From Spirochaetia bacterium (GTDB taxonomy: Bacteria > Spirochaetota > Spirochaetia > CADAEX01): a stretch of 64,000 nt of DNA. Under the pieces are notes generated by a model. The model saw only the letters and a program-made list of their open reading frames with translations, did not search any database and was not told the origin of the DNA. The DNA is taken from positions 3,296,001 through 3,360,000 of the forward strand of contig OY759746.1 of assembly GCA_963662795.1 (NCBI GenBank). The letters run 5' to 3'. The position numbers and the translations under genes were made by a program. Positions 9,652 through 48,797 of the stretch are shown here, in pieces. The first letter of the stretch is position 1. Every line of letters starts with the position of its first letter.

Positions 9652-10205
9652 AAAATATTCTTTTGATAGGTCTTAAATTGACAATAATCTGCGCAGTTGC
9701 AGCTTTATTACTTGCCATGGTAAATGCGGCTACAGCACCAAGAATTGCAAATTTAAAAATCCAGGCGCTTGAGGAAGCGCTATCCGTGATAAACAGCACA
9801 GGTAAACCTGGAAATGAGATATTGATAGACGACAGTATAGTTAAAGGTTATTACCCGGTAATACTTGAGAACGGGGAAAAGGTTAGCTATATCCTTACTC
9901 TTAGAGGCGATGGTTATGCAGGAGATCTTAAAATTCTTGCGAATTATGAAAAATCAGGCAAACTTATTGCATGTATCCTGATGGATAACCAGGAAACACC
10001 CGGGCTTGGAAAAGAAGCGGAAAAAATTGAATACATGAATAAATTCATCGGAACCGGTTCAGACAAACCTGTCCCGGTAAAAAAAAGCCAGCTGCCGTCC
10101 GAAGAAGCTGACGCAATAGGGGGCGCTACCATAACATTTACAGGCATTGCAAAAGCGCTTGAATATGGTTCAGGCTTTATTGAAAAGATAGGAGATCAGC
10201 CGTGA
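9648..10205 (+). CDS. rnfG: Rnf complex subunit G
   Basis: N-terminal TM helix, GYAG, ETPGLG, DAIGGATIT (FMN-binding motif). Confidence 0.94.
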   Translation: MKNILLIGLKLTIICAVAALLLAMVNAATAPRIANLKIQALEEALSVINSTGKPGNEILIDDSIVKGYYPVILENGEKVSYILTLRGDGYAGDLKILANYEKSGKLIACILMDNQETPGLGKEAEKIEYMNKFIGTGSDKPVPVKKSQLPSEEADAIGGATITFTGIAKALEYGSGFIEKIGDQP

Positions 10206-12279: not shown

Positions 12280-14046
12280 ATGAATGAAAAAAATTTAATA
12301 ATAGGCCTTTCCTCAATGAATCTTGCTGATTCTGAACAGGAGGCTGAAGAAAAATATCAAAAAGTATATAAACCTTTCCTTAGAGAACTATATAATTTCC
12401 CCGAAATTAAAGCAGTGCTTCATTTTTCGGGTGTACTGCTTGAATGGTTTAATGATAAACATCCGGAAGTACTCATGTTGCTGGAAGAACTTGTTAAAAA
12501 AAGAAAACAGGTCGAGATTTTAGGCGGCGGCTTTTATGAACCGCTTTTCCCAATGCTTTCTGCCCAGGACCGGAGCGGACAGCTGGAGGCTCTTACAACA
12601 CTGCTGAGAAAAAAATTCGGCAAACGGCCGAGAGGCTGCTGGATTCCGGGCAACTACTGGGACAATTCGCTTATTCTTCCCATAAAAAACAGCGGTATGG
12701 ATTATATATTTCTTGATTATGATTTCATTGATACCGGAATTGAAAATAATGGCGATATATACAGTACTTTCATAACCGAAGACAGCGGTAAGCTGATAAA
12801 TGTATTTCCTGTTCATGCTGCTCTTGCTTCATTGGATAGTTCAGATGTAAACAGCTATATTGACATGCTTAAAATCAGGGGAAACGGAGAAAATTCAATT
12901 ATTTCCCTGATATTTTCAGACACTGATATCGAGAAAAAATCAGAAAAATGGTTTGAAGATTTTTTTTTACAAATCAAAAGCGACAGGGATCTTAACATAA
13001 CCAGTCCTTCATTGTATCTTAAAAAGATCCAAAAATATTCCAAAGTTTATATACAGAATTCTGATTATTATAAAAAAATATTTTCCGACTGTTACTACAT
13101 CAATCTTTTATACGCAAGGATGGTTCATGTACAGACGCTGATTAACCAGATACGCGGGGACAAGTATAAAAAAAAATCTGCAGTAGAATCTCTCTGGGCT
13201 GGACAAAATTTTTTTTCATATACTATCAATCATTTTAAAGAAGACGACATAACCGGAAAAATGCAAAACAGGGCAAAGACATACAGGAATCTGATTGAAG
13301 CCGAGATCCTTACCCGCCAGAAAGGGGTCTTTATCCCCTCACTTTTTAAAAGTGATTTTGATATGGACGGGTTTGATGAATTCCTCTATCTGGGTGAAGA
13401 TTACAATACATTTGTCCATCTTGAGGGGGGAGCAGTTTTTGAACTGGACTCCCTTAAAGATAAATGGAATTACTGCAATATTGTTAATTATTCAGAAAAC
13501 TGCAACAGCTTTAAAAAAAGCTGTTGTGATTATTTTGTTGATAATGATAAAGAGTTTAACTCTATACAGGAATTTATTGATTTTGACATAGCCGGTATTA
13601 CTGAAAAGGAATACAGCATTAATAGTTTTGAACGTGAACAGAAAACACTATCCATGTCTATCAGGGTAAAAAACAGTGAAAAACCTTTTTCGTTTAAAAT
13701 GGTAAAGCAGTACCGTTTTTTGAAAAAGAAATTCGATGTTTCATACAGCATTATCAATACCGGATCTACAGTAATTAATCATAAATTCGGGGTAAATATT
13801 CTTTTATCACTTTGTTACAGCAATGGCGATGACAGAAAAAATAAAATAAAAAAAACATCCAATAACATACAATTGGAGGACTCAATTTCAGGTATATTAA
13901 TTAAATCAGACAGGGATGCGGATATCTATCAGGAAGAGGAATGTAAAAACGGTATTTACTGCTATACTTCTGTCATGCCGGTATGTGATATTATCTCACT
14001 TGAACCGGGAAAGTCATGGGAAAACAGGATAGAAATTAAAGTCTAA
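12280..14046 (+). CDS. GH57 alpha-amylase/4-alpha-glucanotransferase-like protein with C-terminal DUF1926-like domain (possibly inactive)
   Basis: LHFSGVLLEW, VEILGGGFYEP, FGKRPRGCWIP, DFDMDGFDE, GGAVFELD. Confidence 0.82.
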   Translation: MNEKNLIIGLSSMNLADSEQEAEEKYQKVYKPFLRELYNFPEIKAVLHFSGVLLEWFNDKHPEVLMLLEELVKKRKQVEILGGGFYEPLFPMLSAQDRSGQLEALTTLLRKKFGKRPRGCWIPGNYWDNSLILPIKNSGMDYIFLDYDFIDTGIENNGDIYSTFITEDSGKLINVFPVHAALASLDSSDVNSYIDMLKIRGNGENSIISLIFSDTDIEKKSEKWFEDFFLQIKSDRDLNITSPSLYLKKIQKYSKVYIQNSDYYKKIFSDCYYINLLYARMVHVQTLINQIRGDKYKKKSAVESLWAGQNFFSYTINHFKEDDITGKMQNRAKTYRNLIEAEILTRQKGVFIPSLFKSDFDMDGFDEFLYLGEDYNTFVHLEGGAVFELDSLKDKWNYCNIVNYSENCNSFKKSCCDYFVDNDKEFNSIQEFIDFDIAGITEKEYSINSFEREQKTLSMSIRVKNSEKPFSFKMVKQYRFLKKKFDVSYSIINTGSTVINHKFGVNILLSLCYSNGDDRKNKIKKTSNNIQLEDSISGILIKSDRDADIYQEEECKNGIYCYTSVMPVCDIISLEPGKSWENRIEIKV

Positions 14047-15305
14047 TAGGATAAAAGAATTTTATCCAGCCAGACCCTTGATTCCGGATAAAAACTTTCT
14101 GAAGATTTCAAAAACTCAAAAAATGCATATTCCGGTCTGTCGAGAAAATAATAAGACTGTCCCAGATAGAATGATACTCTGTTTTTAAGAGATTTGCGTT
14201 CCGATGTCCTTGAAAGGTCAAGGAGATTTTTAACGCTTTCCTGCCAGTTCCTTTTAAGGAAATATTTTTCAATAATGACAGATAACCTGATCTCTTCGGC
14301 GGTTTTTCCATTTTTAACAGTTTTTTCCGGCATTTCAAGAGTCACTGGAATGAGTTCCTCAGTATTGATATTGTATCCTGATATCAGTAAATCAATTTTA
14401 TTTTTTGTTGAATCAGATATTTTTTTAAAAGAAATATTGTATTCCGGGCCTGCCGTTTTTATCCTGCTGCCGGTTTCAAGGTAATTGTTGATTTTAAATC
14501 CAGGCAAAGGCTCTGCCCTTAAAGCGGAAAGATTTGATTGCTTCTCCTGCCCGGGCGTTAATGCTATTTCTGCCGCGCTTAAAGTTGTATTTTCAAATGG
14601 TATTAATTCGGCGTTTAGATTTTTTAGCAATTCAGCATCAATTACACAGTAATAATACGGAACTCCCGGAATGGGATAATCAGTGTAGCTTTTCCGGTAT
14701 GAAGGAATAATATTAAGTATTGTTGAAGACAGGATATCTTCCCTGCCGAATATGGGTTCAATATGTCTGAGGACGGCAAGATACCTCTCAGGTGAATCAG
14801 CGTTGAAATCAAGAAAAATTGAATCTTTAGCCGCAGCTGCTGTCAGATATCGGACCGAGGCAGTGTTTTCTCCTATCTTATCAATGGATTTTATTGAAAC
14901 CGGTTTTAACGTTATATTCCGGTAAGGGAGGAAGATGTCAAAAATATTGCCTTCCTTATTCTTTGCAATGACTGCATAATAAAAATCAGTGTTATTTATC
15001 GTACTGTCTGAATAATTTTCAGCACCCTGAGGAATTTCATCTACAAGAAACGCATCTGCAAAATTATTCCTGTTTATTTCTTCAGTATGCCTGTATATTA
15101 GATATGTACCGTCAATGTCTCTTGAATCTTTCCATGTAATATTTATCAGTGAATTGCTTTCTACTGCTTTTAATCTTGAAATAAAAGGAGCAAAAACAAA
15201 GTTTTCTTCGCAAGGTGCACCAGGCTGGAGAAGAAGAATCAGCAGAAGTGAAAAAAAGCCTATAATTGTGTATTTTTTCTTTGATTTAAAGAATGATTTC
15301 ATCAT
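14043..15305 (-). CDS. Exported hypothetical protein with two FN3-like segments and a C-terminal TPR
   Basis: Signal-like N-terminus; W...YLIYR...YYAVIA and YTD...YYCVID repeats; FYLGQSYYF TPR helix. Confidence 0.7.
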   Translation of the reverse strand: MMKSFFKSKKKYTIIGFFSLLLILLLQPGAPCEENFVFAPFISRLKAVESNSLINITWKDSRDIDGTYLIYRHTEEINRNNFADAFLVDEIPQGAENYSDSTINNTDFYYAVIAKNKEGNIFDIFLPYRNITLKPVSIKSIDKIGENTASVRYLTAAAAKDSIFLDFNADSPERYLAVLRHIEPIFGREDILSSTILNIIPSYRKSYTDYPIPGVPYYYCVIDAELLKNLNAELIPFENTTLSAAEIALTPGQEKQSNLSALRAEPLPGFKINNYLETGSRIKTAGPEYNISFKKISDSTKNKIDLLISGYNINTEELIPVTLEMPEKTVKNGKTAEEIRLSVIIEKYFLKRNWQESVKNLLDLSRTSERKSLKNRVSFYLGQSYYFLDRPEYAFFEFLKSSESFYPESRVWLDKILLSY

Positions 15306-15351
15306 TATATATTATATCGGCTTGTGGTTTTATTACCCATAGTAAAAGGGT

Positions 15352-15379
15352 TTGACAACAGTAAAAATATATTTAAACT
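15352..15379 (+). promoter_or_regulatory. sigma70-like promoter of the cas2-like gene (leaderless geometry)
   Basis: TTGACA (15352-57), 16 nt, TAAACT (15374-79); ATG follows 7 nt later with no Shine-Dalgarno. Confidence 0.6.
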
Positions 15380-15386
15380 ATGTAAT

Positions 15387-15656
15387 ATGTTTGTATCTGT
15401 AACCTATGATCTTTCGTCTGATGACACTCTGAACAAGGTAAGGGAAATCCTTATTTTTTACGGATTTAAGGAAGTGCTTAAAAATGTGTTTGAATCTGAG
15501 TCAATCAGGGATAATACATTAAAAAAATTAAAAAGAGATATCGACAGGGTTACAGACCATTTTGACAAGGTTAGATTTTATCAATATCCTTATGAGGAAT
15601 TGTTTGCCATAACAATGCTGGAAAAAAAGAAATGGAAAAGAATGCTGCTTAAATGA
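15387..15656 (+). CDS. cas2: Solitary Cas2-like (Cas2/VapD ferredoxin-fold) protein, 89 aa
   Basis: MFVSVTYDL (Cas2 beta1 with conserved Asp), L..YGF..VLKNVFE (cf. YGxRVQxSVFE), DKVRFYQY (cf. DSVRIY); size fits Cas2. The start is placed at ATG 15387 rather than GTG 15324. Confidence 0.72.
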   Translation: MFVSVTYDLSSDDTLNKVREILIFYGFKEVLKNVFESESIRDNTLKKLKRDIDRVTDHFDKVRFYQYPYEELFAITMLEKKKWKRMLLK

Positions 15657-15664
15657 GGAAATAA

Positions 15665-16766
15665 ATGTTAATAGATTATCAGGTCCCCTTAAACAAAATT
15701 ACCAATGAAATAACTCAATCCTGGAGGCATCTTTGACCCGGATATCAGAAAAAAAGAGATTGAAGAATTAGAGAGAAAAACCTATGACGAAGGATTCTGG
15801 GAAGACCGCAAGGAAGCTGAAATCACCCTTACAAAGCTTAAAAGGATTAAAGACGCTTTTCGGCCGTGGGAAAATCTTGTAATTGAATCAGACGATTTAA
15901 AAGAGCTTTTTGAAATGGCCCTGGCCGAGAAAGATGAATCACTTGAAAAAGGGATTGCGGAAAGCATTAAAAGCATTGAAGAAAAATATGCAGAACTTAA
16001 AACCATACAGCTTCTCGGCGATGAAATGGATAATGCGGATGCTTTTATAACAATTCACTCAGGAGCAGGCGGAACAGAAGCCTGCGACTGGGTAAGCATG
16101 CTTTACCGGATGTATACAAGATGGACAGAACGGAAAGGTTTTGATATCGAAGTAATTGATATGCTTGAAGCGGAAGGGGGACTTAAGTCTGTTACTGTAC
16201 AGGTTAAAGGCAGCTATGCCCACGGCTATTTAAAAGGTGAGTCAGGAATCCACAGGCTTGTCAGGATTTCCCCTTTTGACTCAAATGCCAGAAGACACAC
16301 CTCTTTTGCCTCTGTTTATATATCGCCTGTGATAGAAGATGATATAAATGTGGAGATAAGGCCGGAAGATCTAAGGGTAGATACCTACAGGGCATCCGGT
16401 GCCGGCGGACAGCACATAAACAAGACAGACTCCGCGATAAGGATAACACATCTTGAAACAGGAATTGTAGTACAATGCCAGACAGAGAGAAGCCAGCATA
16501 AAAACAGGGCAAATGCCATGAAAGTCCTCAAGTCAAAGCTTTATGAGTATTACAGGCAGAAGCAGGATGAAGAAAATGAAAAATACAGTCAGGAAAAGAA
16601 AGATATTGCGTGGGGAAGCCAGATAAGATCCTATGTTTTTCAACCCTATACAATGGTAAAAGATCACAGGACAAAACACGAAATAGGCAATATTCAGGGT
16701 GTTATGGATGGAAATATTGATCCGTTCATTGAGGAATATCTAAATTTTATATGGAAAAATAAGTAA
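15665..16766 (+). CDS. prfB: Peptide chain release factor 2 with programmed +1 frameshift
   Basis: The short ORF MLIDYQVPLNKITNEITQSWRHL ends in CTT TGA C; the +1 frame continues DPDIRKKEIEELE... with SPF anticodon-mimic and GGQ motifs. Confidence 0.97.
15723..15737 (+). promoter_or_regulatory. RF2 autoregulatory frameshift site
   Basis: Internal SD GGAGG (15723-27), 3-nt spacer, then CTT TGA C (15731-37): the canonical prfB slippery site. Confidence 0.95.
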
Positions 16767-16768
16767 AA

Positions 16769-17134
16769 ATGAAATCCGGTGTATTAATTGTTGATGATCT
16801 GCAATTTGTCAGAATTTCAATTAAGGAAGTACTTGAGAAAGAAGGAATCCCGATAGCAGGGGAAGCTGCCGATGGCATGGCCGCGCTTGAGCTGTATGAG
16901 AAAACAAAGCCGGATATTGTACTCCTTGACATTACAATGCCTGTGATGGATGGATTAAGCGCGTTAAAATTCCTCAAAGTAAGATATCCTGAATCAAATG
17001 TAATCATGTGTTCTGCGCTCGGACAGCAGAAATACATAATCAGGGCTATTCAGCTTGGGGCTTCAGATTTTGTAGTGAAACCTTTCAAGCCGGAAAGACT
17101 CATCAGCTCTATCCTGAAAACCCTGAGGGGTTAA
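16769..17134 (+). CDS. CheY-like single-domain response regulator
   Basis: VLIVDD, DIVLLDITMPVMDG, MCSA, GASDFVVKPF. Confidence 0.92.
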   Translation: MKSGVLIVDDLQFVRISIKEVLEKEGIPIAGEAADGMAALELYEKTKPDIVLLDITMPVMDGLSALKFLKVRYPESNVIMCSALGQQKYIIRAIQLGASDFVVKPFKPERLISSILKTLRG

Positions 17135-18555
17135 TGAAAACCAGACTTTTAATAGCGGCCTTATTGTTCTTCTCTTTTTCCATGCTTTATGCAGAAAAAT
17201 TGATTCTGCTTGACGAAAAAGACAAATGGAATATTGCAATTGCTGATTTTAAAATTACTGATTCTTCTTCCGATTCAATTTATCTGAGGAATTCGATTCC
17301 AGCTTTTCTATATAATCAGCTATCATCCTGTCTCAGTCACACGCTGACGGAAAATGAAATATTACTGCTCCAAAACAGGATTATAATTGAAAAAATTGAA
17401 GAAAAAGAGAGTAAACTGGCAGCATATTCAAAAGACTTTAATTTGACTTACTTTAATGAAAGTACGAAAAGAAAGGAACTCCGGGACAGTATACAATTAA
17501 CTGAAAAAGAAATAAGACAGCTTAAAAAATACAGTCCTGAAAAAATAAAAATAAATCCGATAAAAGAGATCTCTTTTATTACTGAAGGGGAAAATACTGA
17601 GAAAATTTCATTCGATCCGGTCAATATCGGTGTCTTTGCAGACAGAAAGAATTCTGATTATGTTATTTATGGTTCTGCAGGACAATTTGATGATCTTTTA
17701 CTTCTTGAAATCAGGTTATACAGTTCTTTGGTTAAAAAAGATATATATGTGAATTCAGTATCCGCTGACATCAATTCCCTTTTTACCTCACTGGATAAGA
17801 CTGTTTCTGATTTAACTTCCATACTCCTGGGTACTTCATGGAGCAAGCTTACAGTCGATACAAATATGGGCGATGCTGATATATACCTGAATAACAAATA
17901 TATCGGAAGCAGCAATGTCAAGAATATTATTGTAAAGCCCGGGAAACATCTTCTTACAGTTAAGGGACAGGGGATAGCTGAGAAGGAACTTGAAATATTT
18001 CTCGAAGAAAATAAAGAAAACGTTATAAACATGGAAACAGAGGAAAAAGAGGAAAAACTGACAGCAATAAATACTCTCCCGCCTGATGCTGATATCTATT
18101 ATGATTCACTTTGGCGGGGGAGGAGCCCGTATCTCTTAAACGGACTATCTGGAGAATTATATATAAAAAAAGAAGGGTACAGGGATTTAAAACTTTTTAT
18201 CGATGATTATCCTGAAAACAGTATTACTTTACAGCTTTCTCCTGATATCTTTAAAAAAGAGGAATATTTTGATAACAGGAGAGACACCTTTTACAGAAAT
18301 TTTTCTTTCTTCATTTTATCAGTGCCTCTTCCGTTTTTCCTGTTCGCAGTTCTCAATGATTACAGCGACGCCTATAATAATTCTTTAAGTTCCGGAACCA
18401 ACAGCAGTGAAACTGAAAGGCTCAGGAAATTAACCAGCTTTACTTATTATGGTTATTACGGTAGCCTGTTTTTAACAATTTCCCTTTTTGTAAATACAAT
18501 ATTTCATTTGAATGATTATATCAAAGCAGGCGATATACTTGGACAGGAGCAGTAA
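17134..18555 (+). CDS. PEGA domain-containing exported/membrane protein
   Basis: Start moved to the ATG overlapping the cheY stop (TAATG); signal peptide MKTRLLIAALLFF; two PEGA-like repeats (ADIYLNNKYIG...PGKH.L.V; PPDADIYYD..W.G.SP...KKEGY); C-terminal hydrophobic helices. Confidence 0.8.
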   Translation: MKTRLLIAALLFFSFSMLYAEKLILLDEKDKWNIAIADFKITDSSSDSIYLRNSIPAFLYNQLSSCLSHTLTENEILLLQNRIIIEKIEEKESKLAAYSKDFNLTYFNESTKRKELRDSIQLTEKEIRQLKKYSPEKIKINPIKEISFITEGENTEKISFDPVNIGVFADRKNSDYVIYGSAGQFDDLLLLEIRLYSSLVKKDIYVNSVSADINSLFTSLDKTVSDLTSILLGTSWSKLTVDTNMGDADIYLNNKYIGSSNVKNIIVKPGKHLLTVKGQGIAEKELEIFLEENKENVINMETEEKEEKLTAINTLPPDADIYYDSLWRGRSPYLLNGLSGELYIKKEGYRDLKLFIDDYPENSITLQLSPDIFKKEEYFDNRRDTFYRNFSFFILSVPLPFFLFAVLNDYSDAYNNSLSSGTNSSETERLRKLTSFTYYGYYGSLFLTISLFVNTIFHLNDYIKAGDILGQEQ

Positions 18556-19431
18556 ATGGCAAAATTGAATCTTGGGCAAAAACTTAAAAATATTTTCAAA
18601 TTAAATAAAGGCAATCAGGAATTTTTTGATGATCTAGAAGATATTCTGGTCGAATCCGATATGGGTGTCGGAGTTTCAGTTGATATAGTAAAAGAACTTA
18701 AGGAACATGCTGCCGGAAAAAAGATTACAGGTGAGGAAAATATTATCAGACTGTTAAAAGAAATTATCTCCGGTAAGATCCTTGAGTATAAATTTACCCT
18801 TGATAATGACAATCTTGTTTTGATCCTCTTTTTGGGTGTTAACGGAGTGGGGAAAACCACAACAATAGCAAAAACCGCAAATTTCATAAAAGAGAATTAC
18901 CCACGAAAAGGGATAATACTTTCAGCTGCAGACACATTCAGGGCTGCCGCAATTGAACAGCTTAAAATCCATGGAGAAAGACTTGGAGTGAGGGTCGTAA
19001 GCCAGGAGCATGGCTCAGATCCCGGGGCTGTTATATTCGACACTATCGAGAGCGCAAAAGCAAAGGGTGAAAAGGTAATACTCGCTGATACTGCCGGGAG
19101 AATGCATAACAGGGTTAATCTTGTCAAAGAACTCCAGAAGATTGATAAAATTATCAAAAACAGGATTGAAAAAGATAACTACCTTAAATTTCTGGTAATA
19201 GATTCAACTACAGGCCAGAACGGCCTTAGTCAGGCTGAAATATTTCATGAAGCGATTGGTATTGATGCTGTTGTAATGGCCAAAAGCGATTCATCAGCCA
19301 AAGGCGGTATTGCGGCAGCAATTTCAGGCAAGCTGGGACTCCCTTTTGTTTTTTTAGGTACAGGAGAAAAATACGGAGATTTAAAACAATTCAGTAAGGA
19401 TGAATATCTGGATAACCTTTTAAATGTTTAA
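18556..19431 (+). CDS. ftsY: Signal recognition particle receptor FtsY (short NG-only form)
   Basis: GVNGVGKTTT, DTFRAAA, DTAGR, GTGE. Confidence 0.96.
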   Translation: MAKLNLGQKLKNIFKLNKGNQEFFDDLEDILVESDMGVGVSVDIVKELKEHAAGKKITGEENIIRLLKEIISGKILEYKFTLDNDNLVLILFLGVNGVGKTTTIAKTANFIKENYPRKGIILSAADTFRAAAIEQLKIHGERLGVRVVSQEHGSDPGAVIFDTIESAKAKGEKVILADTAGRMHNRVNLVKELQKIDKIIKNRIEKDNYLKFLVIDSTTGQNGLSQAEIFHEAIGIDAVVMAKSDSSAKGGIAAAISGKLGLPFVFLGTGEKYGDLKQFSKDEYLDNLLNV

Positions 19432-20491
19432 ATATCTTTTATTAATATTTTTATTTGCATATACACCGTCTCTTTTTTCCCAGGAATATTACAGATCAAA
19501 CAAACTTGGAATGCCTCTTGAAAAAATTGAAAAATACAGAATAGATGAGTTTGAATATTATCTTGAAAAAAAAACCTCAGGGTTGAAAGAAGAAAATATC
19601 CTGTATCAAAACTCAGATATTGTTATGGAAAATGAGATTTATTATACATCTGATAAAAAACCAGAAAGGGAATTAACTAAGGAAGATAATACAGTAACAG
19701 AGAAAAAATACAGGAATTTACTTATTTACGAAGAAAAGATAATAAACCCGGATAAAACAGGTATTATCAGGAAATATAATTATAATGAAAACAGCCAGCT
19801 TTATTCAGTAGATGAATTAACTCTCGAAGGGATTCCTGACAACAGGGTCACATACGAAAGAGATATAAAAGGGAGGATAATTTCAGTTGTCAGGCTTGTT
19901 TTAAGGGATAAAAATACAGGATTGAAAGATCCTGAACCGGTTGAAGATCAGTTTTCAAAATACAGGTTTTCAGGCCGCAATCTAACTGAGGAATGGCATG
20001 GAAGCAGTGATACAACCGGAAGCTTTATATATTACAGTTCAGACGGAAAGATCTCCGGTATTATGCAGAAAAAGGAAGGTAAAACAGTTTCGGAGAAAAA
20101 ATACTTTTATGAAAACACCGGAGCATACAGAACTGAGGAGATAATCCCTGATGCAAAAGAAAAAAATATTCAGTATTTTGATACTGCCGGGAATATAACT
20201 GAAGAGGTCTTATCCCTGGGGGATAAAGCAGTTCTTAAAACTACCTGGTTTTATAATGACAAAAAAATTGTAAAAAAAATATCGACAAGCGAAAAGGGAA
20301 CAGAAAGGTCTCTGTATGTATACTCAGGCGACAAAGTTTCGGGCGAAAAAATGTTTTTTAATGGAGAACTGGTTTACGAAAAAGTATATACTGATGATGA
20401 TAGTTATTATGAGGATAATTATTCATCAGGTAAAAGATATTCAAGAAAATACTATAAAAACGGTGAAAAGATTAAAACTGAAACATGGTGA
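19424..20491 (+). CDS. Exported hypothetical protein with Tyr-rich beta-hairpin (YD/MORN-like) repeats
   Basis: Signal peptide; recurrent YxYxxxGxI / YYxxG patterns. Confidence 0.7.
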   Translation: MFKYLLLIFLFAYTPSLFSQEYYRSNKLGMPLEKIEKYRIDEFEYYLEKKTSGLKEENILYQNSDIVMENEIYYTSDKKPERELTKEDNTVTEKKYRNLLIYEEKIINPDKTGIIRKYNYNENSQLYSVDELTLEGIPDNRVTYERDIKGRIISVVRLVLRDKNTGLKDPEPVEDQFSKYRFSGRNLTEEWHGSSDTTGSFIYYSSDGKISGIMQKKEGKTVSEKKYFYENTGAYRTEEIIPDAKEKNIQYFDTAGNITEEVLSLGDKAVLKTTWFYNDKKIVKKISTSEKGTERSLYVYSGDKVSGEKMFFNGELVYEKVYTDDDSYYEDNYSSGKRYSRKYYKNGEKIKTETW

Positions 20492-21780
20492 ACAAATGGA
20501 CAATATTTCTTGCTGACAGATATATAAGGGCAAGAAGGACAGAAAAGAAAAACACGACACAAAAACTTTCAATACTTGGTCTTGCCGCAGGTGTTGTTAC
20601 ACTTGTAGCAGTCATGTCTATCATGAATGGGCTGCAGCTTGGATTTATCAATGATATCCTTGAAATTGAATCCTATCATCTCCGTATCAATAATGTTTTT
20701 AATGAAAGAAGCACAAGGGAAGTCCTTGGCAGTATTTCTGCGATTACAAGCCATACAGCCTTCAGCGATGTGCAGACCCTTCTTCAGGGACGAAGTTCAA
20801 AACTTGAGCCTGTTGTCGTAAGGATGATGGAAGATGGTGAGGCTTTACGGGATAAGGGATTTATGAATCATCTCGGAATGCTGGAAGGTGATTTTGATAT
20901 CAGCGGGGGGTACAAGGCTGTAATCGGCAATGAACTTGCAAAATATCTGCATGTTTCGGCAGGTAATACAATAAATATTGTATCACTTTCCGGAAATTCT
21001 TTTTCATCCCTTCACCCCGGGACGCTGGAGCTGACAATTACAGGGGTATTTCAGTCCGGGTATTACGATTTTGACAGGGGTATGATCTTCATTTCAGACT
21101 TGAATGCTCCCCTGCTTAATCCGGGAACAACAGAGGGTGAAAAGATAATAGGCATAAAGCTCAAAAATCAGTACAGGGACATGGAAACTCTTGCTGCGCT
21201 GAAATCCGCGCTGCCAGGTGCGGAAATTGTTTCCTGGAGGGATTACAATAAATCTTTTTTCAGCGCGCTTCGTATTGAAAAGATTACAATGATGCTCCTG
21301 ATTGCGCTTATTTTTGTAGTAATCGGGGTGAATATATTCAATTCAATAAAAAGAACAGTTGCTGAAAAGCTTGAAGACATTGCAGTACTCTACTCTCTCG
21401 GCGCACCTGACAGGTCAGTAAAAAGAATATTCCTTATTGAAGGGGTAATTATTGGTCTTGCGGGGGGAATCTTCGGTATCGCCGGCGGCCTGCTTCTTAT
21501 AATCAATATAAATGAGTTGTTTGCCATTACAGGAAAGCTTCTGTCCGGTTTATCCCTTTTCGCGGGTTATCTGGCGTCAGCTTCAGGACTCTATCAGTCT
21601 TCAGAATTTACCCTTTTCCCGGAAGATTATTTTTATCTGACAGAGATACCGGTGAAAATACTGCTCCCCGAGATGGTCCTGATTTTTATATTCGCGTTTC
21701 TCTCTGCTGTTGTGTCCGCATGGTTTGCGTCAAAAAAACTTTCTGTAAAAAATCCTGCTGAGTATCTGAGGTATGAATAA
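20485..21780 (+). CDS. LolC/E-type (FtsX family) lipoprotein-release ABC permease
   Basis: LVAVMSIMNGLQ, TGVFQSGYYDFD, SWRDYNKSFFSALRIEK, YFL.EIP, PAEYLRYE. Confidence 0.88.
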   Translation: MVNKWTIFLADRYIRARRTEKKNTTQKLSILGLAAGVVTLVAVMSIMNGLQLGFINDILEIESYHLRINNVFNERSTREVLGSISAITSHTAFSDVQTLLQGRSSKLEPVVVRMMEDGEALRDKGFMNHLGMLEGDFDISGGYKAVIGNELAKYLHVSAGNTINIVSLSGNSFSSLHPGTLELTITGVFQSGYYDFDRGMIFISDLNAPLLNPGTTEGEKIIGIKLKNQYRDMETLAALKSALPGAEIVSWRDYNKSFFSALRIEKITMMLLIALIFVVIGVNIFNSIKRTVAEKLEDIAVLYSLGAPDRSVKRIFLIEGVIIGLAGGIFGIAGGLLLIININELFAITGKLLSGLSLFAGYLASASGLYQSSEFTLFPEDYFYLTEIPVKILLPEMVLIFIFAFLSAVVSAWFASKKLSVKNPAEYLRYE

Positions 21781-22457
21781 TGGATAAAGTTGTTGAAATA
21801 GAAAAGCTGTTTAAAAAATATAAAAGCGGCACAGATGATCTTGTTATTCTTGAAGGGCTGGATCTTACTCTCGAAAAGGGGAAAAAACTCATTATCACCG
21901 GGGAAAGCGGCTGCGGAAAAAGTACCCTGCTTAATATTATGGGGGGACTCGACAGGGGAAGCGGAGGAATTGTAAGGATTTGCGGTGCCGATGTTGAGCA
22001 GATGGAAGAAAAAGAACTTTATAATTTCCGCAACAGGATTATAGGTTTTGTTTTCCAGTTCCATTATCTTTTAAAAGAACTTACCGCGGCAGAAAATGTA
22101 ATGATGCCTATGTTTATCAGGGGAGAAACGAAAAAAAAATCACTTGAAGAGGCTGAAAAAATACTCGCAAAAGTAAATCTGGCAGAAAGAGCCTCTTTTT
22201 ATCCATATCAGCTCTCTGGCGGTGAAAGACAGAGGGTCGCTGTTGCAAGAGCTCTTATAAACAATCCTTCCATACTTCTTGCCGATGAACCTACAGGCAA
22301 TCTTGATGAGAAAAATTCCAGAATAGTTGAAGAACTTCTTTTCAGCCTTGTCGCACAGCAGAATACAACCCTGGTTATGGTAACGCATGATGCATCCCTG
22401 TCTGAAAGGGGAGACAGTACCATGAAACTGGAAAAAGGCAGATTAAAGGAAATATGA
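21780..22457 (+). CDS. lolD: LolD-type ABC ATP-binding protein
   Basis: GESGCGKSTLL, GFVFQFHYLL (LolD motif), LSGGERQR, DEPTGNLD. Confidence 0.9.
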   Translation: MDKVVEIEKLFKKYKSGTDDLVILEGLDLTLEKGKKLIITGESGCGKSTLLNIMGGLDRGSGGIVRICGADVEQMEEKELYNFRNRIIGFVFQFHYLLKELTAAENVMMPMFIRGETKKKSLEEAEKILAKVNLAERASFYPYQLSGGERQRVAVARALINNPSILLADEPTGNLDEKNSRIVEELLFSLVAQQNTTLVMVTHDASLSERGDSTMKLEKGRLKEI

Positions 22458-23779
22458 AAGTAAAAAACGCGTTATTCCTTGCCTTGAAATTTTTTTCCAG
22501 TAAAAATACAGACAAAAACCTCTTCCGGCATATAAGAGGCGCGGTTATAGGTATAGCGCTCAGCCTCGTACCTCTTGTAATTGTACTTGAAGTCACTGAC
22601 GGTATGATAGAAGGGATAACCAGAAGATATATTGAGGTGGGGAGTTATCATTATCAGGCAAGGGATTTACAGAATACAGAAGCTGATTTTGAAACAATAA
22701 TTGAAAATCTTGAGAGTCTCGAAACTGTAGACAACGCATTTGCCTTTATCCAGGATACATGCCTGATCTATACAAAAGAGGGGAGAACAGGGGTTTCTGT
22801 GAGGGGGCTGCCTGAAAGCCTTTATAACAAGGACAGGGGACTAAGAGAGTATCTAGTCTTTTCTGAAGGAAGTTTTACACTTGACTCCGAAGCTATATTG
22901 CTGAGCAGCAGCATAGCCAAAAAAATCGGCGCATCCGCAGGCGATGAAATCAGGCTTCTGACCGCTTTTAATCAGCCTGGACGGGCGCTGATACTCCGTC
23001 CTGCAAGGTTTATCGTAAAAGGGGTCTTTACGACCGGCTACAGGGAACTGGATGAGGTCAGCGTCTATATAAACTACGACAGGGCTTCCTCGCTTTTCAG
23101 AGGCGCGAGCCAGCCGTACATCGGTATAAAGGTGAAAGATCCATATAATTCTTCAGATTCATTCGGAAACATTTCCGGCGATAAGACAGCTGAAGTGCTG
23201 CGCAATCATCTTCCGCCTACTTTTATCCTGAGTTCATGGTACAGACTTAATTACACTTTATATAAAAGCCTTGAAACGACTAAAAAACTATTAATGCTTA
23301 TAATGATACTTATCCTCTCTGTCGCATCCCTCAATATTTCTTCCGCAATGATTATGATGGTTCTCTCCAGGAGAAAAGAGATTGCAATATTGAAAAGCAT
23401 CGGTTTTTCACAAAGCGACATAGCCCTTGCATTTCTTGCGACAGGTGTTCTGATAGGCCTTGCAGGTACTTTTATTGGCATGCTTGCGGGAATAGCCGGA
23501 TCTCTTCATATAAACTGGATAATCGGAACTATTGAAAAACTTATCAATTATTTTATATTTTCAGGATATTTTGTGCTTAATTTTTTCAGGCAGACAGAAT
23601 ATGGAGGTTTCAGAATACTTGATTCAGGGTATTACCTTGAACAGATTCCTGTTACTCTCGATTTTCTTGAACTGTGTCTTGTTTCCTTCATCTCCCTGCT
23701 TTTATCATCGGCCGCCTCTTTTCTCCCGTCTTTCAGGGCAGGAGCAATAAGACCGGTAGAGATTCTGCGAAAAAGCTGA
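22454..23779 (+). CDS. LolC/E-type ABC permease (second subunit)
   Basis: V..GMIEGI, GVFTTGY.ELD, EIAILKSIG, YYLEQIP, RPVEILR. Confidence 0.86.
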   Translation: MKVKNALFLALKFFSSKNTDKNLFRHIRGAVIGIALSLVPLVIVLEVTDGMIEGITRRYIEVGSYHYQARDLQNTEADFETIIENLESLETVDNAFAFIQDTCLIYTKEGRTGVSVRGLPESLYNKDRGLREYLVFSEGSFTLDSEAILLSSSIAKKIGASAGDEIRLLTAFNQPGRALILRPARFIVKGVFTTGYRELDEVSVYINYDRASSLFRGASQPYIGIKVKDPYNSSDSFGNISGDKTAEVLRNHLPPTFILSSWYRLNYTLYKSLETTKKLLMLIMILILSVASLNISSAMIMMVLSRRKEIAILKSIGFSQSDIALAFLATGVLIGLAGTFIGMLAGIAGSLHINWIIGTIEKLINYFIFSGYFVLNFFRQTEYGGFRILDSGYYLEQIPVTLDFLELCLVSFISLLLSSAASFLPSFRAGAIRPVEILRKS

Positions 23780-32082: not shown

Positions 32083-33063
32083 ATGGAATTCATCAAAAAG
32101 ATAAAAATATTGTCTGTTCTGATAGTGGCTCTTACTGCGTTATATATCTCCGGGCTGGTTTTTTCATCAGCAAATGTTCATAAGAGAAAATCCGATGAAA
32201 AGATATTTGATAATAATCTGATTGAAAAAATAGAAATGGTTAAGATTGATTCTGAGGATGGCCTTCTGAATTTCAATAAAGAAGGAGAAAAATGGGTAAT
32301 TCAGCTTGATAATAAAAATTATCCGGCATCTTCTGAAAAAATTAAAAATCTGATTGATTCTGTGTCAGATATTACTAAATATCAGGTTTCAGGTACTGAT
32401 CCAAAAAGCTGGGTAAAGTTTGACCTTGAAGAAGAAAAGGCCAAAAAAGCTGTTTTTCTCGATAGCAGTAAAAATCCTCTGTTTACCCTTTACATTGGCA
32501 AGGAAGGCCCTGTAAGCGGAGGAGAGTATATCCGCAGTTCCCTGTCAGATGAGGTATATCTTCTTGACGCAACAATAAACAGATATTTCATCCGTGACAT
32601 AAACTACTGGAGCGACCTGAGAGTTTTTCCTGCCGGGTTTGATGCCGCCTCAATTACTTCTGTAAAAATCAAATCTGATATTAAAATTGAAGATGAATTA
32701 TTTAAACTGGATTTATACTTTAAAAAAGAAATTAAAGATAAGGGTACTCCCTTTATATGGATAAATAATGCTGATAATAAAGAATCAGACAGAAACAAAA
32801 CCGATCTTATGATCAACAATATCATAACGATAAATGGAGACAGTTTTTCTGATACGGATATTACAGCAAAAAACTGTGAACTAGAGATTGAATCAGATGT
32901 TCTTGGAAGAATAATATTTGATATCCAGAAGATTGACGAGGAATCTGTAATTTTTGGTATACGCGGAAATCCTCTGCGGTATAAGGCTTCAATTTATAAA
33001 ATAAACAGGCTCCTGAAATCAGTTAATGATATCTTTGCAGAACCAGAACCAGGAAACAGTTAA
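32083..33063 (+). CDS. DUF4340 family membrane-anchored protein
   Basis: N-terminal TM; W......YPA, FDL, LYIGK....G.YIR....VYL, WSDLRVF; typical fourth gene after GldG. Confidence 0.75.
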   Translation: MEFIKKIKILSVLIVALTALYISGLVFSSANVHKRKSDEKIFDNNLIEKIEMVKIDSEDGLLNFNKEGEKWVIQLDNKNYPASSEKIKNLIDSVSDITKYQVSGTDPKSWVKFDLEEEKAKKAVFLDSSKNPLFTLYIGKEGPVSGGEYIRSSLSDEVYLLDATINRYFIRDINYWSDLRVFPAGFDAASITSVKIKSDIKIEDELFKLDLYFKKEIKDKGTPFIWINNADNKESDRNKTDLMINNIITINGDSFSDTDITAKNCELEIESDVLGRIIFDIQKIDEESVIFGIRGNPLRYKASIYKINRLLKSVNDIFAEPEPGNS

Positions 33064-34325
33064 TCAGGATTACTTTCTGAAAGCATTTTTCTGTATTTTT
33101 CGGGATCCGACCTGAAGGCTATTACCGGTGTGCCGGATTCCGAAACTGCTTTTGCAAGTGCGCCTTCTGCTTCCTTTACGAGACGTTTCCCTGAGATCAG
33201 TCTTCCGTTACGTGAACTTACTCCCGCGAATATTTCTTCAATCTCTGAAACATGTTTAAGTCTTACTACAAAAGCATTGATTTTAGGCAGGCACTCCTCA
33301 AGGTCTGTCCCTGGATTAATTATAGCGATACTATTGCTGTCGTACTCAAAGGCCATATCAGGCATGAAAAAGCTGCGAAGAAGTTCAGGTAAATTCTGAT
33401 ACAGAATATTAATTCTGGCTTTTTCGGAGGAAATCCAGGAAAGTATGAAAAGTGTCAGATCAGTATCAAAAGAAGCAGCTTTATCAAGTTCATAGCTGAG
33501 TTTTGAATTGAAGTACTCAAACCAGGCAAGGCCTGTTTTTTCAGATATTTGTATATCTTCCTTGATTTCCGGTATTTCTTCTTCCTCAACAGCTTCACTG
33601 ACTGTAACAGGCTCTTTATAAGGAGATGCAGATGAAGGGGCAGCCTGTTTTACTGAAACATTATTATGCTTAATCTCAGCTGCAGCCGGTGATTTAACGG
33701 AATCATCTTTTTCCGCAGCCGTCTTTGCAGTTTCCTCATCCTGGTTACTGCCGGCTATTTTAACAGAAATGGCTGCCTTTTTCTTTTCAGGCATAAAAAG
33801 CAGGAAGAAAATTGTAATAATTATATAAAAGAGAAGAACAAGGATTATTATTTTTATCAGATAGGCAACATCATAAAATTTAAGCGTGTTGTAAACTGTT
33901 TCAATACTTATGTTATTGCTTCCCGGTATAATTACTGTTGCAGTAAAAAGGTTGTAAAGTATCCTGTTGAAGCTGTATTCCGGCTTCGTGATAAAATCCG
34001 GGGTAAAAACCGGCTTTTTGGTTATTATACCTGTATTTTTAATATAAAGATATTCTATCTTTTCATTGCTGCTGATAACGATGGATTGAAGCGCCATGTC
34101 AGCAGAAAAAAATCGATTAATTGTATTTTTAAATGCGGATGATGAAAATTCTTCACCTGAAAGGTATAAGGTTGTAATTTCGCTTTTTATTTTATTCAGG
34201 TATCTGGATCCATTTTCCCTGCCGTCATTGTACTTGCGGCTTATTGAAAAAATGGAAAATATTATGAGAACTATAAAAAAAATATTACTTAGAATAATGT
34301 AATTGGAATAATACTTGTTTTTCAT
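33060..34325 (-). CDS. Membrane protein with a degenerate GGDEF-like C-terminal domain
   Basis: Two TM helices around a periplasmic domain and a low-complexity linker; TGL...F...L..EL..A....DLTL, GVS.RNGR....L.KEA..AL..A; the GGDEF position reads YDSNS. Confidence 0.7.
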   Translation of the reverse strand: MKNKYYSNYIILSNIFFIVLIIFSIFSISRKYNDGRENGSRYLNKIKSEITTLYLSGEEFSSSAFKNTINRFFSADMALQSIVISSNEKIEYLYIKNTGIITKKPVFTPDFITKPEYSFNRILYNLFTATVIIPGSNNISIETVYNTLKFYDVAYLIKIIILVLLFYIIITIFFLLFMPEKKKAAISVKIAGSNQDEETAKTAAEKDDSVKSPAAAEIKHNNVSVKQAAPSSASPYKEPVTVSEAVEEEEIPEIKEDIQISEKTGLAWFEYFNSKLSYELDKAASFDTDLTLFILSWISSEKARINILYQNLPELLRSFFMPDMAFEYDSNSIAIINPGTDLEECLPKINAFVVRLKHVSEIEEIFAGVSSRNGRLISGKRLVKEAEGALAKAVSESGTPVIAFRSDPEKYRKMLSESNPD

Positions 34326-48059: not shown

Positions 48060-48797
48060 CTACATCAGTCCTGTCTTTGAGAGGATTATTGCAAGTCCCG
48101 CGGCACAGGCCGTTTCTGTTTTTAATACTCTTTCTCCAATGCTGTAAAGATTGAAACCGTAATCATAAAGGGTCTGTCTTTCTTTTGCGCTCCATCCCCG
48201 TTCGCCGCCAACCGCGAGAACTATGTGGTTTTTATCTTTTTTATCTGTTTCCCGGAATTGCAGTGCACCAAGCGGCTTCTCTGCTTCGTAGTTATCCAGG
48301 GCGGCCCTGACTGTATACTTATCCGGAATATTTTTAAGGCATTCTGAAAATGACTGAAATAGTCTGACTTCAGGAATATCTGCGGCAAAAGCCTGGGATG
48401 CTCCTTCTATCAGATAATTTTTATAGTTTTCCTTTTTCCATAAAGAACTGTCCATATAGGATTTTTCCGATTTTTCAAGTACAGCGAGAAAGAGTGCGGT
48501 GATTCCGATAGTAGCAGAATTTTTCAGTATTTTTTTTGCTTCAGGAGGACGGGTTACTGCAGTTAAAAGGATAACAGGGTTTCTTTTAATACTTCTTGCT
48601 GTATATGTAAAAGTGAAAATAATTTCCCTTGTGTCAATGCTGTTTATAAGGGCCTTTCCTGTTCCGGTATTTATAACTCCTGCATCGAAACTTTCGCCGG
48701 AGGATAATTTAAGTATCTTTTTTATGTGAATCGCCCTGGCATCATTTAAAGGCAGCGGTACGTTAATTTCCTCTGGTGTAAATAGAATTATATTCAT
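48060..48797 (-). CDS. rsmE: 16S rRNA m3U1498 methyltransferase RsmE
   Basis: HI..ILK, EKSY, GA.QA, AVGGERGWS..ER, GERVLKTETA SPOUT motifs. Confidence 0.9.
   Translation of the reverse strand: MNIILFTPEEINVPLPLNDARAIHIKKILKLSSGESFDAGVINTGTGKALINSIDTREIIFTFTYTARSIKRNPVILLTAVTRPPEAKKILKNSATIGITALFLAVLEKSEKSYMDSSLWKKENYKNYLIEGASQAFAADIPEVRLFQSFSECLKNIPDKYTVRAALDNYEAEKPLGALQFRETDKKDKNHIVLAVGGERGWSAKERQTLYDYGFNLYSIGERVLKTETACAAGLAIILSKTGLM

Follow-up and report, generated by a model that had tools for sequence, protein, structure and literature searches.

Two proteins are universal in CRISPR systems, and Cas2 is one of them; to our knowledge, it has never been established what its conserved nuclease site does. 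There is precedent for Cas2 mattering outside spacer acquisition, in genes that, unlike the one described here, remain in cas operons next to cas1: the Cas2 of Legionella pneumophila reportedly has a CRISPR-independent role in amoeba infection. For the type I-C Cas2 of Leptospira interrogans a role has been reported at a locus described as lacking an array (PMC9510766). Mobile elements have also been described as carrying Cas2 homologues that lie away from CRISPR loci, beside genes for resolvases or relaxases (Makarova et al. 2012, PMC3506569), and a solo Cas2/VapD-like nuclease sub-family, BPSL1038, has been described in Burkholderia pseudomallei, an organism presented as having no CRISPR system (PMC10491678). 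In the case of spirochaetes, one paper on Cas2 and CRISPR in Treponema denticola deals, as far as its account goes, with a type II-A locus only, and among the papers listed by our literature search none concerned a cas2-prfB linkage or a spirochaete solo Cas2.

The Cas2-like gene considered here lies in a Spirochaetia bacterium, within a stretch of 64,000 nucleotides that was analysed as a whole and is referred to below as the window. The features of the locus are as follows:

14043..15305, minus strand, divergent gene for a 420-aa protein with a hydrophobic N-terminus and no Pfam match
15352..15379, plus strand, putative sigma-70-type promoter (TTGACA at 15352-15357, 16-nt spacer, TAAACT at 15374-15379)
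15387..15656, plus strand, Cas2-like gene (ATG at 15387; 89 aa plus a TGA stop at 15654-15656)
15657..15664, plus strand, 8-nt spacer between the Cas2-like gene and prfB, whose GAGGA Shine-Dalgarno sequence overlaps the Cas2-like stop codon
15665..16766, plus strand, prfB, encoding release factor 2 (PCRF 184 bits, RF-1 157 bits)
16769..17134, plus strand, CheY-like single-domain response-regulator receiver, starting 2 nt after prfB (Response_reg 110.8 bits)
17134..18555, plus strand, PEGA-domain protein with a signal-peptide-like N-terminus (PEGA 45 bits), its start overlapping the cheY-like stop by 1 nt
18556..19431, plus strand, ftsY, encoding the SRP receptor (SRP54 217.8 bits, SRP54_N 42.5 bits)
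19424..20491, plus strand, 355-aa protein with no Pfam match, overlapping ftsY by 8 nt
20485-21780, 21780-22457 and 22454-23779, plus strand, lolC-, lolD- and lolE-like ABC transporter genes (MacB_PCD+FtsX, ABC_tran and MacB_PCD+FtsX, respectively)

The gene order that had been read from the sequence is borne out, with the prfB ATG at 15665, 8 nt past the Cas2-like stop, and with Pfam agreeing on the cheY, PEGA, ftsY and lolCDE genes, which overlap or are separated by at most 8 nt in a tightly packed run that ends with the lolCDE-like genes (20485..23779). The prfB gene carries the +1 programmed frameshift site CTT TGA C at 15731-15737, with GGAGG ahead of it; 96 of 97 distinct loci have a frameshift site of this kind. 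No Rfam family matched between positions 10000 and 26000 of the window. A single contig of 809 nt from a metatranscriptome library, ca. 95% identical, spans positions 15432-16235 and thus crosses the Cas2-like/prfB junction; it comes from the sole RNA-library run that contained part of the stretch, leaves the 5' end of the Cas2-like gene uncovered and could derive from DNA. It gives no more than a weak hint of a single Cas2-like/prfB transcript.

The preliminary description had recognised an intact 89-aa ORF with Cas2 hallmarks, and all of them are present in the protein (V5-T6-Y7-D8, Y25-G26-F27, N33-V34-F35-E36 and D60-K-V-R63-F-Y65). Comparison with Cas2 profiles placed the protein above the curated cut-off in both families searched, with 44.8 bits against 23.8 for PF09827 (Pfam Cas2) and 29.1 bits against 24.5 for TIGR01573, and 14 Cas2 models of PADLOC matched it, the best of them at 41.8 bits. 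As in canonical Cas2, an acidic residue ends beta1, (S/N)VFE is found in beta3 and D-x-x-R-x-Y in beta4. The acidic residue, at position 8, is kept in all 105 distinct family members (D in 86, E in 19), E36, K49, D60, Y65, Q66, P68 and W83 are invariant among the same 105, and D57 and R63 are nearly so (104 of 105). The family has in addition invariant motifs of its own, namely L-K-R-D-I-D-R-x-T-D in alpha2, Y-Q-Y-P after beta4, and a K-K-W-K-R hairpin. The gene, which is single-copy in this genome and is present once in each genome that carries it, is under strong purifying selection, with dN/dS values of 0.02-0.15 (34 of 45 close pairs, with unsaturated dS). Fused forms were also considered as a clue to function, but only one match was found among 8,000 scored longer-protein candidates. 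This singleton, a protein of 306 aa from a contig of 1,073 bp, seems unrelated over its last 220 residues and is probably an assembly or frame artefact.

The AlphaFold2 model of the protein (pLDDT 96.4, pTM 0.85) has the element order beta1-alpha1-beta2-beta3-alpha2-beta4-beta5-beta6, in which the ferredoxin-like beta1-alpha1-beta2-beta3-alpha2-beta4 fold is present. The top Foldseek matches of this model were all Cas2 (TM 0.6-0.74), and in a wide VIA-align search of 48,161 chains the best 13 PDB matches were again all Cas2, with Z of 8.8-11.1; the canonical proteins matched include Thermus thermophilus TT1823 (1zpw), Escherichia coli Cas2 in the Cas1-Cas2 complex (4qdl), Sulfolobus solfataricus SSO8090 (3exc) and Pyrococcus furiosus PF1117 (2i0x). 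The VapD toxins Haemophilus influenzae VapD (6zi0) and Campylobacter jejuni VapD-VapW (9kan), which share the superfamily fold, lay under these 13 chains, at Z 6.8-6.9. As judged from the profile matches and the predicted structure, the protein is a genuine member of the Cas2 family with a Cas2 fold. In contrast to canonical Cas2, its C-terminus is predicted, in the model of the monomer, to form a beta5-beta6 hairpin without an extended tail, and this hairpin includes the basic K-K-K-W-K-R stretch, modelled with pLDDT >90. Rescue factors of the ArfA/BrfA type are small proteins that bind RF2 and the empty mRNA channel via a disordered basic C-terminal tail, whereas the basic C-terminus of the Cas2-like protein is predicted to be structured.

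Independence from CRISPR had been proposed on the basis of the window, and the claim holds both there and in the genomes that carry the gene. Among 56 ORFs of at least 90 aa compared with PADLOC at E<=1e-8, a Cas match was obtained for the Cas2-like ORF only, and Tandem Repeats Finder detected no CRISPR-like array in the window. A cas1 gene does exist elsewhere in the genome, in a type I-C cas4-cas1-cas2 locus with an array at 2.326-2.329 Mb, ca. 985 kb away from the Cas2-like gene. The Cas2 of that locus and the Cas2-like protein are 28% identical over 72 aa (BLASTP, E 0.06), the alignment stopping at residue 65 of the latter, before the C-terminal part, and the Cas2c model gives 139 bits for the I-C Cas2 versus 17.8 bits for the Cas2-like protein. 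A match to Cas1 was absent in 25 of the 34 genomes that carry the Cas2-like gene, including 18 of the 27 carriers with a completeness of 90% or more; conversely, 12 related genomes contain Cas1 but the Cas2-like gene was not found in them. Unlike canonical cas2 genes, the Cas2-like gene was not found near cas1, other cas genes or an array at any locus examined. In a phylogenetic tree, 47 solo sequences fell on one branch (support 100/99, length 1.53), separate from the 18 cas1-linked Cas2 of the same set of genomes, and the distances between Cas2-like proteins track those between their RF2 proteins (Mantel r 0.84, a value reached in 0 of 2000 permutations), which indicates vertical descent. 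Going by these sequence comparisons, the gene is not debris or a recent copy of the CRISPR Cas2 of the genome itself. The term 'domesticated', on the other hand, implies derivation from a CRISPR Cas2, and this is unproven because the Cas2 tree has no reliable root.

The resemblance to BPSL1038 lies in a lineage-conserved Cas2-fold protein that keeps the Asp at the catalytic position and has no CRISPR system to serve; by its description, BPSL1038 differs in belonging to another lineage, in its motif D11(X20)SST and in that no link to prfB or to an operon is reported for it (PMC10491678). With the homologues on mobile elements the gene shares the absence of cas1 nearby, but those reside, as described, on selfish elements (PMC3506569), whereas the present gene is inherited vertically and has a fixed place in the core genome, within a housekeeping operon.

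The preliminary description suggested that similar genes sit by prfB in other spirochaetes, and this proved to be near-universal in class Spirochaetia and not to extend to the 10 loci examined from other spirochaete classes. Directly downstream of the Cas2-like gene, prfB was found in 30 of 30, 80 of 80 and 8 of 8 loci, and it follows the gene directly in 96 of the 97 distinct Spirochaetia-class loci with a callable prfB start, with a median gap of 18.5 nt (at most 30 nt in 74 of these 96 loci; overlapping genes in 8). RF2 identity among the loci that keep this adjacency is 58-99%, a divergence of class level. The CheY-like gene lies downstream of prfB in most loci, and the divergent gene for the 420-aa protein is syntenic upstream (tblastn) in most Spirochaetia-class loci and is kept even in a genome from which the Cas2-like gene is missing. 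In the other spirochaete classes, on the contrary, the homologue adjoins prfB in 0 of 10 loci; these loci have an ordinary GGAG Shine-Dalgarno sequence and variable neighbours, with no neighbour common to all ten and no neighbour family present in more than 4 of them, and the 420-aa protein had no significant match among those neighbours (best E 0.13).

Not every related genome carries the gene. The Cas2-like clade is present in 34 of 61 related genomes and was not found in the other 27, among them all nine genomes of one genus (0/9), and in a sample of the phylum large families were without it (0/75, 0/38 and 0/17). In a large Treponema-like family, by contrast, 37 of 50 genomes have the gene, and records from Marispirochaeta, Oceanispirochaeta and Sediminispirochaeta are among its carriers. 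In five near-complete genomes prfB has other genes upstream and the Cas2-like gene is cleanly absent there. The gene has therefore been lost in many lineages and is not essential for RF2 function. These absences, and the lack of linkage to prfB in the 10 loci of other classes, speak against a strictly core role of the kind suggested for it beforehand. The idea of an RF2-specific stop codon, in which UGA would act as a sensor of RF2, was discarded too, since the gene ends with TGA in 37, TAA in 33 and TAG in 27 of 97 distinct loci. It may be that the linkage to prfB is a frozen operon arrangement rather than a functional partnership.

What appears to be new here is a conserved promoter positioned for a leaderless Cas2-like cistron. 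The TTGACA/TAAACT promoter noted previously for the gene is present, with 10 of 12 matches to the consensus and with the -10 element ending 7 nt before the ATG, and it is conserved across orthologous loci, although within the window alone promoter-like sites are not above chance (22 found versus 25.1 expected from shuffles). Of 95 distinct Spirochaetia-class loci, 72 show the arrangement TTGACA-17-TA(C/A)ACT, ending 5-8 nt before the ATG, and a perfect TTGACA is present in 68 of these 72; none of the controls had it (0 of 67 cheY upstream regions and 0 of 118 shuffled sequences). Sequences resembling a Shine-Dalgarno element precede the Cas2-like ATG in just 5 of the 95 loci. Since the promoter is conserved at 5-8 nt from the ATG and there is almost no Shine-Dalgarno sequence, the first cistron is probably leaderless. 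This promoter geometry is not peculiar to the Cas2-like gene, being present at 6 of 55 putative starts in the window.

Taken as a whole, the explanation that we consider probable is that of a CRISPR-independent Cas2 branch that heads the prfB operon of the Spirochaetia and has an accessory function. The branch is an old, vertically inherited one, spread through the phylum Spirochaetota, which in class Spirochaetia provides the first cistron of a tightly packed operon continuing with prfB and the cheY-like gene and, in the present genome, also with the PEGA, ftsY and lolCDE-like genes. From the conserved position of the promoter, the operon mRNA would start at or a few bases from the Cas2-like ATG, so that the first cistron would be translated leaderless and prfB, 0-30 nt downstream, via its own Shine-Dalgarno sequence, both proteins being made from a single transcript. 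To judge from what is known of the family, the protein would form a homodimer of the Cas2 type, able to bind nucleic acid and perhaps to cut it by means of its cluster of acidic residues and of the K-W-K/R-R hairpin, which is basic and invariant, and its accessory function would lie outside defence, probably in RNA- or translation-related processes. Such a function would be useful but dispensable, because many lineages have lost the gene.

A possible reading, although clearly a less probable one, is that the protein is functionally a stranger to the operon in which it sits, a nuclease or nucleic-acid-binding protein of small size with a job unrelated to translation termination, for example in DNA metabolism, regulation or residual defence, whose position was fixed by an ancestral Spirochaetia operon with a strong conserved promoter. 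The unlinked homologues of the other classes (10 of 10), the five genomes in which prfB does without the gene and the mixed usage of stop codons agree with it, but adjacency has persisted in 96 of 97 distinct loci despite divergence at the level of the class, with gaps mostly of 30 nt or less, and gene order kept for so long is rare unless co-expression is useful. It is rather unlikely, at the opposite end, that the Cas2 fold was exapted into translation, where the protein would take part in trans in RF2-dependent termination or in the rescue of ribosomes; it might then, for example, cut the mRNA of stalled ribosomes or keep it in place, with RF2 subsequently releasing the peptide, and synthesis from a leaderless first cistron would tie the levels of both proteins to the condition of the translation machinery. 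Slightly more doubtful still is a leader cistron acting mainly in cis, in which translation of the leaderless ORF would set the expression of prfB and downstream genes and the protein would be secondary. The conserved leaderless geometry would suit such a device, as would the way in which the gene overlaps prfB or ends very close to it; a role only in cis, however, would not keep a whole fold at dN/dS 0.02-0.15 with more than 12 invariant residues, nor the protein in other classes, where it has an ordinary Shine-Dalgarno sequence and is away from prfB.

Two further readings seem to us very improbable. That the protein is a spare Cas2 still serving CRISPR adaptation as a partner of Cas1 in trans could be thought from the I-C cas1 locus of the genome and from the scores above the Cas2 cut-offs, but that locus has its own Cas2, to which similarity ends before the C-terminal part, most carriers are without a Cas1 match and no examined locus is near cas1 or an array. 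It is just as hard to see in it a toxin of the VapD type, belonging to an addiction or toxin-antitoxin module. Cas2 and VapD have indeed been described as homologous (PMC3506569, PMC6452270) and VapD structures match the model, yet they match it less well than Cas2 structures do, and the gene has no antitoxin partner or mobile context and leaves no place for a small partner ORF between the 81 nt of promoter region upstream and prfB 8 nt downstream; single copy, fixed chromosomal position, vertical inheritance and strong purifying selection are likewise at odds with such a module.

In public databases, 'CRISPR-associated protein Cas2' is the name given to hundreds of such genes, so that counts of orphan cas genes in spirochaetes are inflated. 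The putative leaderless promoter conserved ahead of prfB bears on how spirochaetes express release factor 2. Moreover, a CRISPR-free Cas2 branch kept for so long, under strong selection, in a housekeeping operon constitutes a natural experiment on what Cas2 does when it stands alone. The branch also matters for the question of how the adaptation module arose, being either a CRISPR Cas2 recruited to a cellular job or a pre-CRISPR relic. It is possible that the branch is a surviving pre-CRISPR lineage, not derived from CRISPR, in which case it may retain the role that Cas2 had before it joined Cas1.

The Cas2-like gene and its surroundings are arranged as follows.

14043-15305, - strand: divergent gene of 420 aa, N-terminus hydrophobic, without a Pfam match
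15338-15362: conserved block CCATAG-(6-10 nt)-GGGTTTGACA, just 5' of the -35 box and reaching into it
15387-15656, + strand: Cas2-like gene, an intact ORF of 89 aa with stop codon TGA
After prfB and down to 23779, in order: genes for a CheY-like receiver, a PEGA protein, ftsY, a 355-aa protein and lolC/D/E-like genes
19424-20491, + strand: the 355-aa ORF, with no Pfam match, between ftsY and the lolC-like gene and overlapping both

The start of the Cas2-like gene was placed at the ATG at 15387 because all orthologues begin there, with Met-Phe-Val/Ile as their N-terminus, and the 60 nt upstream hold the promoter; a longer frame initiated by a GTG at 15324 was rejected on the same grounds. Every Cas2 hallmark motif claimed for this ORF in the preliminary description was found in the protein, which also scored above the curated cut-offs of two Cas2 profiles, the Pfam model PF09827 (44.8 bits, cut-off 23.8) and TIGR01573 (29.1, cut-off 24.5). 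An AlphaFold2 model computed from 29 orthologues was very confident (pLDDT 96.4, pTM 0.85), with the predicted element order beta1-alpha1-beta2-beta3-alpha2-beta4-beta5-beta6. The Cas2 fold, on whose presence the reading had been staked beforehand, was recovered from this model both by Foldseek, whose top matches in the PDB were Cas2 throughout (3exc, 4qr0, 5h1o, 2i0x, 1zpw and 4es2; TM 0.6-0.74), and by an independent search of 48,161 chains, in which Cas2 structures occupied ranks 1-13 (Z 8.8-11.1) and VapD toxins ranked below them (Z 6.8-6.9). By sequence and predicted fold, the protein is a Cas2.

The genome, a single contig of 3.93 Mb, contains one Cas1 and two PF09827 matches, the second of which is found ca. 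985 kb from the solo gene, inside a cas4-cas1-cas2 locus.

Contig 1, ~2,326,054-2,329,287: locus L002, a canonical type I-C-like adaptation module (cas4-like ORF, cas1, cas2) with an array

In this locus cas1 and cas2 score 354.7 and 94.7 bits, respectively, and the repeat array is visible 3' of the cas genes as ORFs repeating one peptide. The L002 Cas2 reaches 139 bits with the PADLOC Cas2c model, whereas the solo protein reaches 17.8 bits, its best PADLOC score being 41.8 bits with a generic Cas2 model, and the two proteins are 28% identical over 72 residues (E 0.06). The distance, the low identity and the difference in score led us to reject the solo gene as debris of the resident CRISPR system. 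The earlier statement that the 64-kb window holds no other cas gene or array held when 56 ORFs of at least 90 aa were scanned, with no further Cas match, and tandem repeats were searched for, with none that is array-like. Among 61 related genomes from its own genus, family and class, a single-protein search detected a full-length solo homologue in 34 (42-99% identity) and Cas1 was present in 21: both were found in 9, only the solo gene in 25, only Cas1 in 12 and neither in 15, and of the 27 carriers with a completeness of 90% or more, 18 lack Cas1. The two distribution patterns are unrelated. Genomic context, which is what makes a Cas2 "CRISPR-associated", sets the solo protein apart, and it is not CRISPR-associated. 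Elsewhere in the window, a 652-aa ORF (39571-41526, - strand) contains tandem repeats at 40049-40365 (periods 3, 15-18 and 57 nt), and a very long ORF of 1,642 aa (56528-61453, - strand) has no PADLOC match.

The solo gene is tightly linked to prfB, which starts 8 nt after its stop codon and whose Shine-Dalgarno sequence, GAGGA, overlaps that stop. The classical +1 frameshift site of prfB (CTT TGA C, 15731-15737) is preceded by GGAGG, the PCRF and RF-1 domains are encoded in the downstream frame, and the genes that follow are separated by gaps of at most 8 nt or overlap. Tyr/Lys/Glu repeats are abundant in the 355-aa ORF, whose N-terminus is signal-like. The synteny with prfB in other spirochaetes, mentioned in the preliminary description, was seen in every Spirochaetia-class locus examined: prfB lies directly 3' in 30/30 loci of related genomes (including one cut by a contig end, in which the prfB start and frameshift site are still visible), in all of the best 80 of 368 loci from a species-wide scan, and in 8/8 loci of a large Treponema-like family. 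After removal of duplicates 97 distinct loci remained, and the prfB start and CTTTGA could be called in 96, with a median distance from the Cas2-like stop of 18.5 nt (30 nt or less in 74 loci, overlap in 8). In most loci prfB is in turn followed by a cheY-like gene, and upstream of the pair most have a homologue of the 420-aa gene, its divergent orientation being conserved. An 809-nt contig from a metatranscriptome library, ca. 95% identical and covering 15432-16235 across the Cas2-like/prfB junction, is a weak indication that the two genes are co-transcribed in a close relative. On the other hand, ten loci of other classes (L114-L123) showed no prfB within 0.65-2.5 kb of downstream sequence and no cas gene among their variable neighbours, and in five near-complete same-class genomes lacking the Cas2-like gene, prfB and its frameshift site are retained after other genes; in one of them (L159) the divergent gene is kept and the Cas2-like gene alone is missing. 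The protein is therefore independent of an adjoining prfB, and RF2 of the protein. Of the ten loci of other classes, three have as a neighbour a protein of 690 aa containing TPR-like sequence, three a membrane protein of 400-460 aa and four a secreted protein of 550 aa.

The promoter proposed for the solo gene (TTGACA/TAAACT, 15352-15379, 10 of 12 matches) is not above chance in the window alone, but its position is conserved across orthologous loci. At least 9 of 12 positions matched in 80 of 95 distinct Spirochaetia-class upstream regions, and the -35 box is a perfect TTGACA in 68; most of the -10 elements read TACACT or TAAACT, usually after a spacer of 17 nt. In 72 of the 95 loci the last base of the -10 hexamer lies 5-8 nt ahead of the A of the ATG, against 0/67 upstream of the cheY-like gene and 0/118 in shuffled sequences when these were scanned as controls. 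A Shine-Dalgarno-like word is present in only five of the 95; all ten loci of other classes have a GGAG Shine-Dalgarno and no such promoter. Bacterial transcription starts ca. 6-8 nt past the -10 element, so that the operon mRNA probably begins at or beside the Cas2-like ATG, and the first cistron would be translated leaderless. The same geometry is seen at 6 of the window's 55 putative starts, mostly in first genes of divergent pairs, and it looks like a lineage habit kept at the prfB operon rather than a peculiarity of the Cas2-like gene. The five further putative starts, each without a Shine-Dalgarno and with a promoter-like -10 element ending 5-8 nt ahead of the start codon, belong to

5170
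14046-15305, - strand
33063-34325, - strand
34419
48063-48797, - strand

and this organism may make common use of leaderless first cistrons. The CCATAG block occupies the same place in L016, L017, L022, L043-L068 and other loci; in many of them the divergent gene may start at its CAT, in which case only ca. 50 nt would separate the two start codons. In the window, an in-frame stop comes after the corresponding ATG, and the divergent gene apparently starts at 15305.

The solo family is distinct, old and under selection. Position 8 is acidic in all 105 distinct members (D in 86, E in 19), E36, K49, D60, Y65, Q66, P68 and W83 are invariant, and D57 and R63 are conserved in 104. Several of these positions coincide with the canonical Cas2 motifs YD, VFE and D-x-x-R-x-Y, and others are specific to the branch (L-K-R-D-I-D-R-x-T-D in alpha2, a Q-Y-P turn and a K-K-W-K-R hairpin). 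Among ten close orthologues dN/dS was 0.02-0.15 (34 of 45 pairs, those with unsaturated dS). A maximum-likelihood tree of 97 columns, with no reliable root, placed 47 solo sequences in one group (support 100/99, branch length 1.53), with the ten from other spirochaete classes as a subgroup (99/97) and 18 cas1-linked Cas2 proteins of the same genomes outside; it shows separateness, not direction of descent. Distances between solo proteins correlate with those between RF2 proteins (Mantel r 0.84; 0/2000 permutations as high), which shows joint, apparently vertical descent and nothing more, since the two genes adjoin. A profile search found the family in 59 of 401 genomes across the phylum; it is common in one Treponema-like family (37/50), and three large families had no carrier among their sampled members (0/75, 0/38 and 0/17). 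The species-wide scan, in which each bacterial and archaeal species was represented by a single genome, yielded the 368 encoding loci, the best 80 of which are in records labelled as spirochaetes or unclassified bacteria, and a large protein collection gave 765 matches, the named ones carrying the label "CRISPR-associated protein/endonuclease Cas2" from NCBI or JGI pipelines. One singleton, P0122 (306 aa, on a 1,073-bp contig), joins ca. 80 N-terminal residues of solo Cas2 to an unrelated remainder with a precomputed PF25399 hit, and probably results from a chimeric contig or a frame error.

A CRISPR-independent protein with a Cas2-family fold and an acidic residue in beta1, kept by selection, thus heads the prfB operon in one class. 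Both genes would be co-transcribed from the conserved promoter, the first cistron would be translated as a leaderless message, and its product would act as a Cas2-like homodimer that binds, and possibly cuts, nucleic acid; that the substrate lies in translation, e.g. mRNA on terminating or stalled ribosomes, is speculative. Three other readings, a purely cis-acting leader ORF, a spare Cas2 acting in trans in adaptation, and a VapD-type toxin, are each contradicted by several of our results. According to the main rival, what the protein does has no bearing on RF2, and its place beside prfB is a frozen operon arrangement, as the independence from prfB in other classes would suggest, although an adjacency unbroken over class-level divergence speaks against it. 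Of the domesticated Cas2 first proposed, the CRISPR independence, the antiquity and the place in the prfB operon stand, whereas the function suggested is not yet borne out.

A solo Cas2 of spirochaetes or a cas2-prfB link was not found in a full-text search, subscription journals and supplementary files lying outside it. The nearest published parallels are BPSL1038 of Burkholderia, a solo Cas2/VapD-like nuclease whose host organism has no CRISPR (PMC10491678), the Cas2 homologues that Makarova and colleagues reported on mobile elements (PMC3506569), and VapD toxins; none is tied to a housekeeping operon, unlike the solo Cas2 described here. The conserved promoter and the probably leaderless first cistron are new in this analysis. 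The solo family is a branch of Cas2 recruited to, or surviving in, a housekeeping context outside CRISPR, and it could reveal what a Cas2 does without CRISPR.
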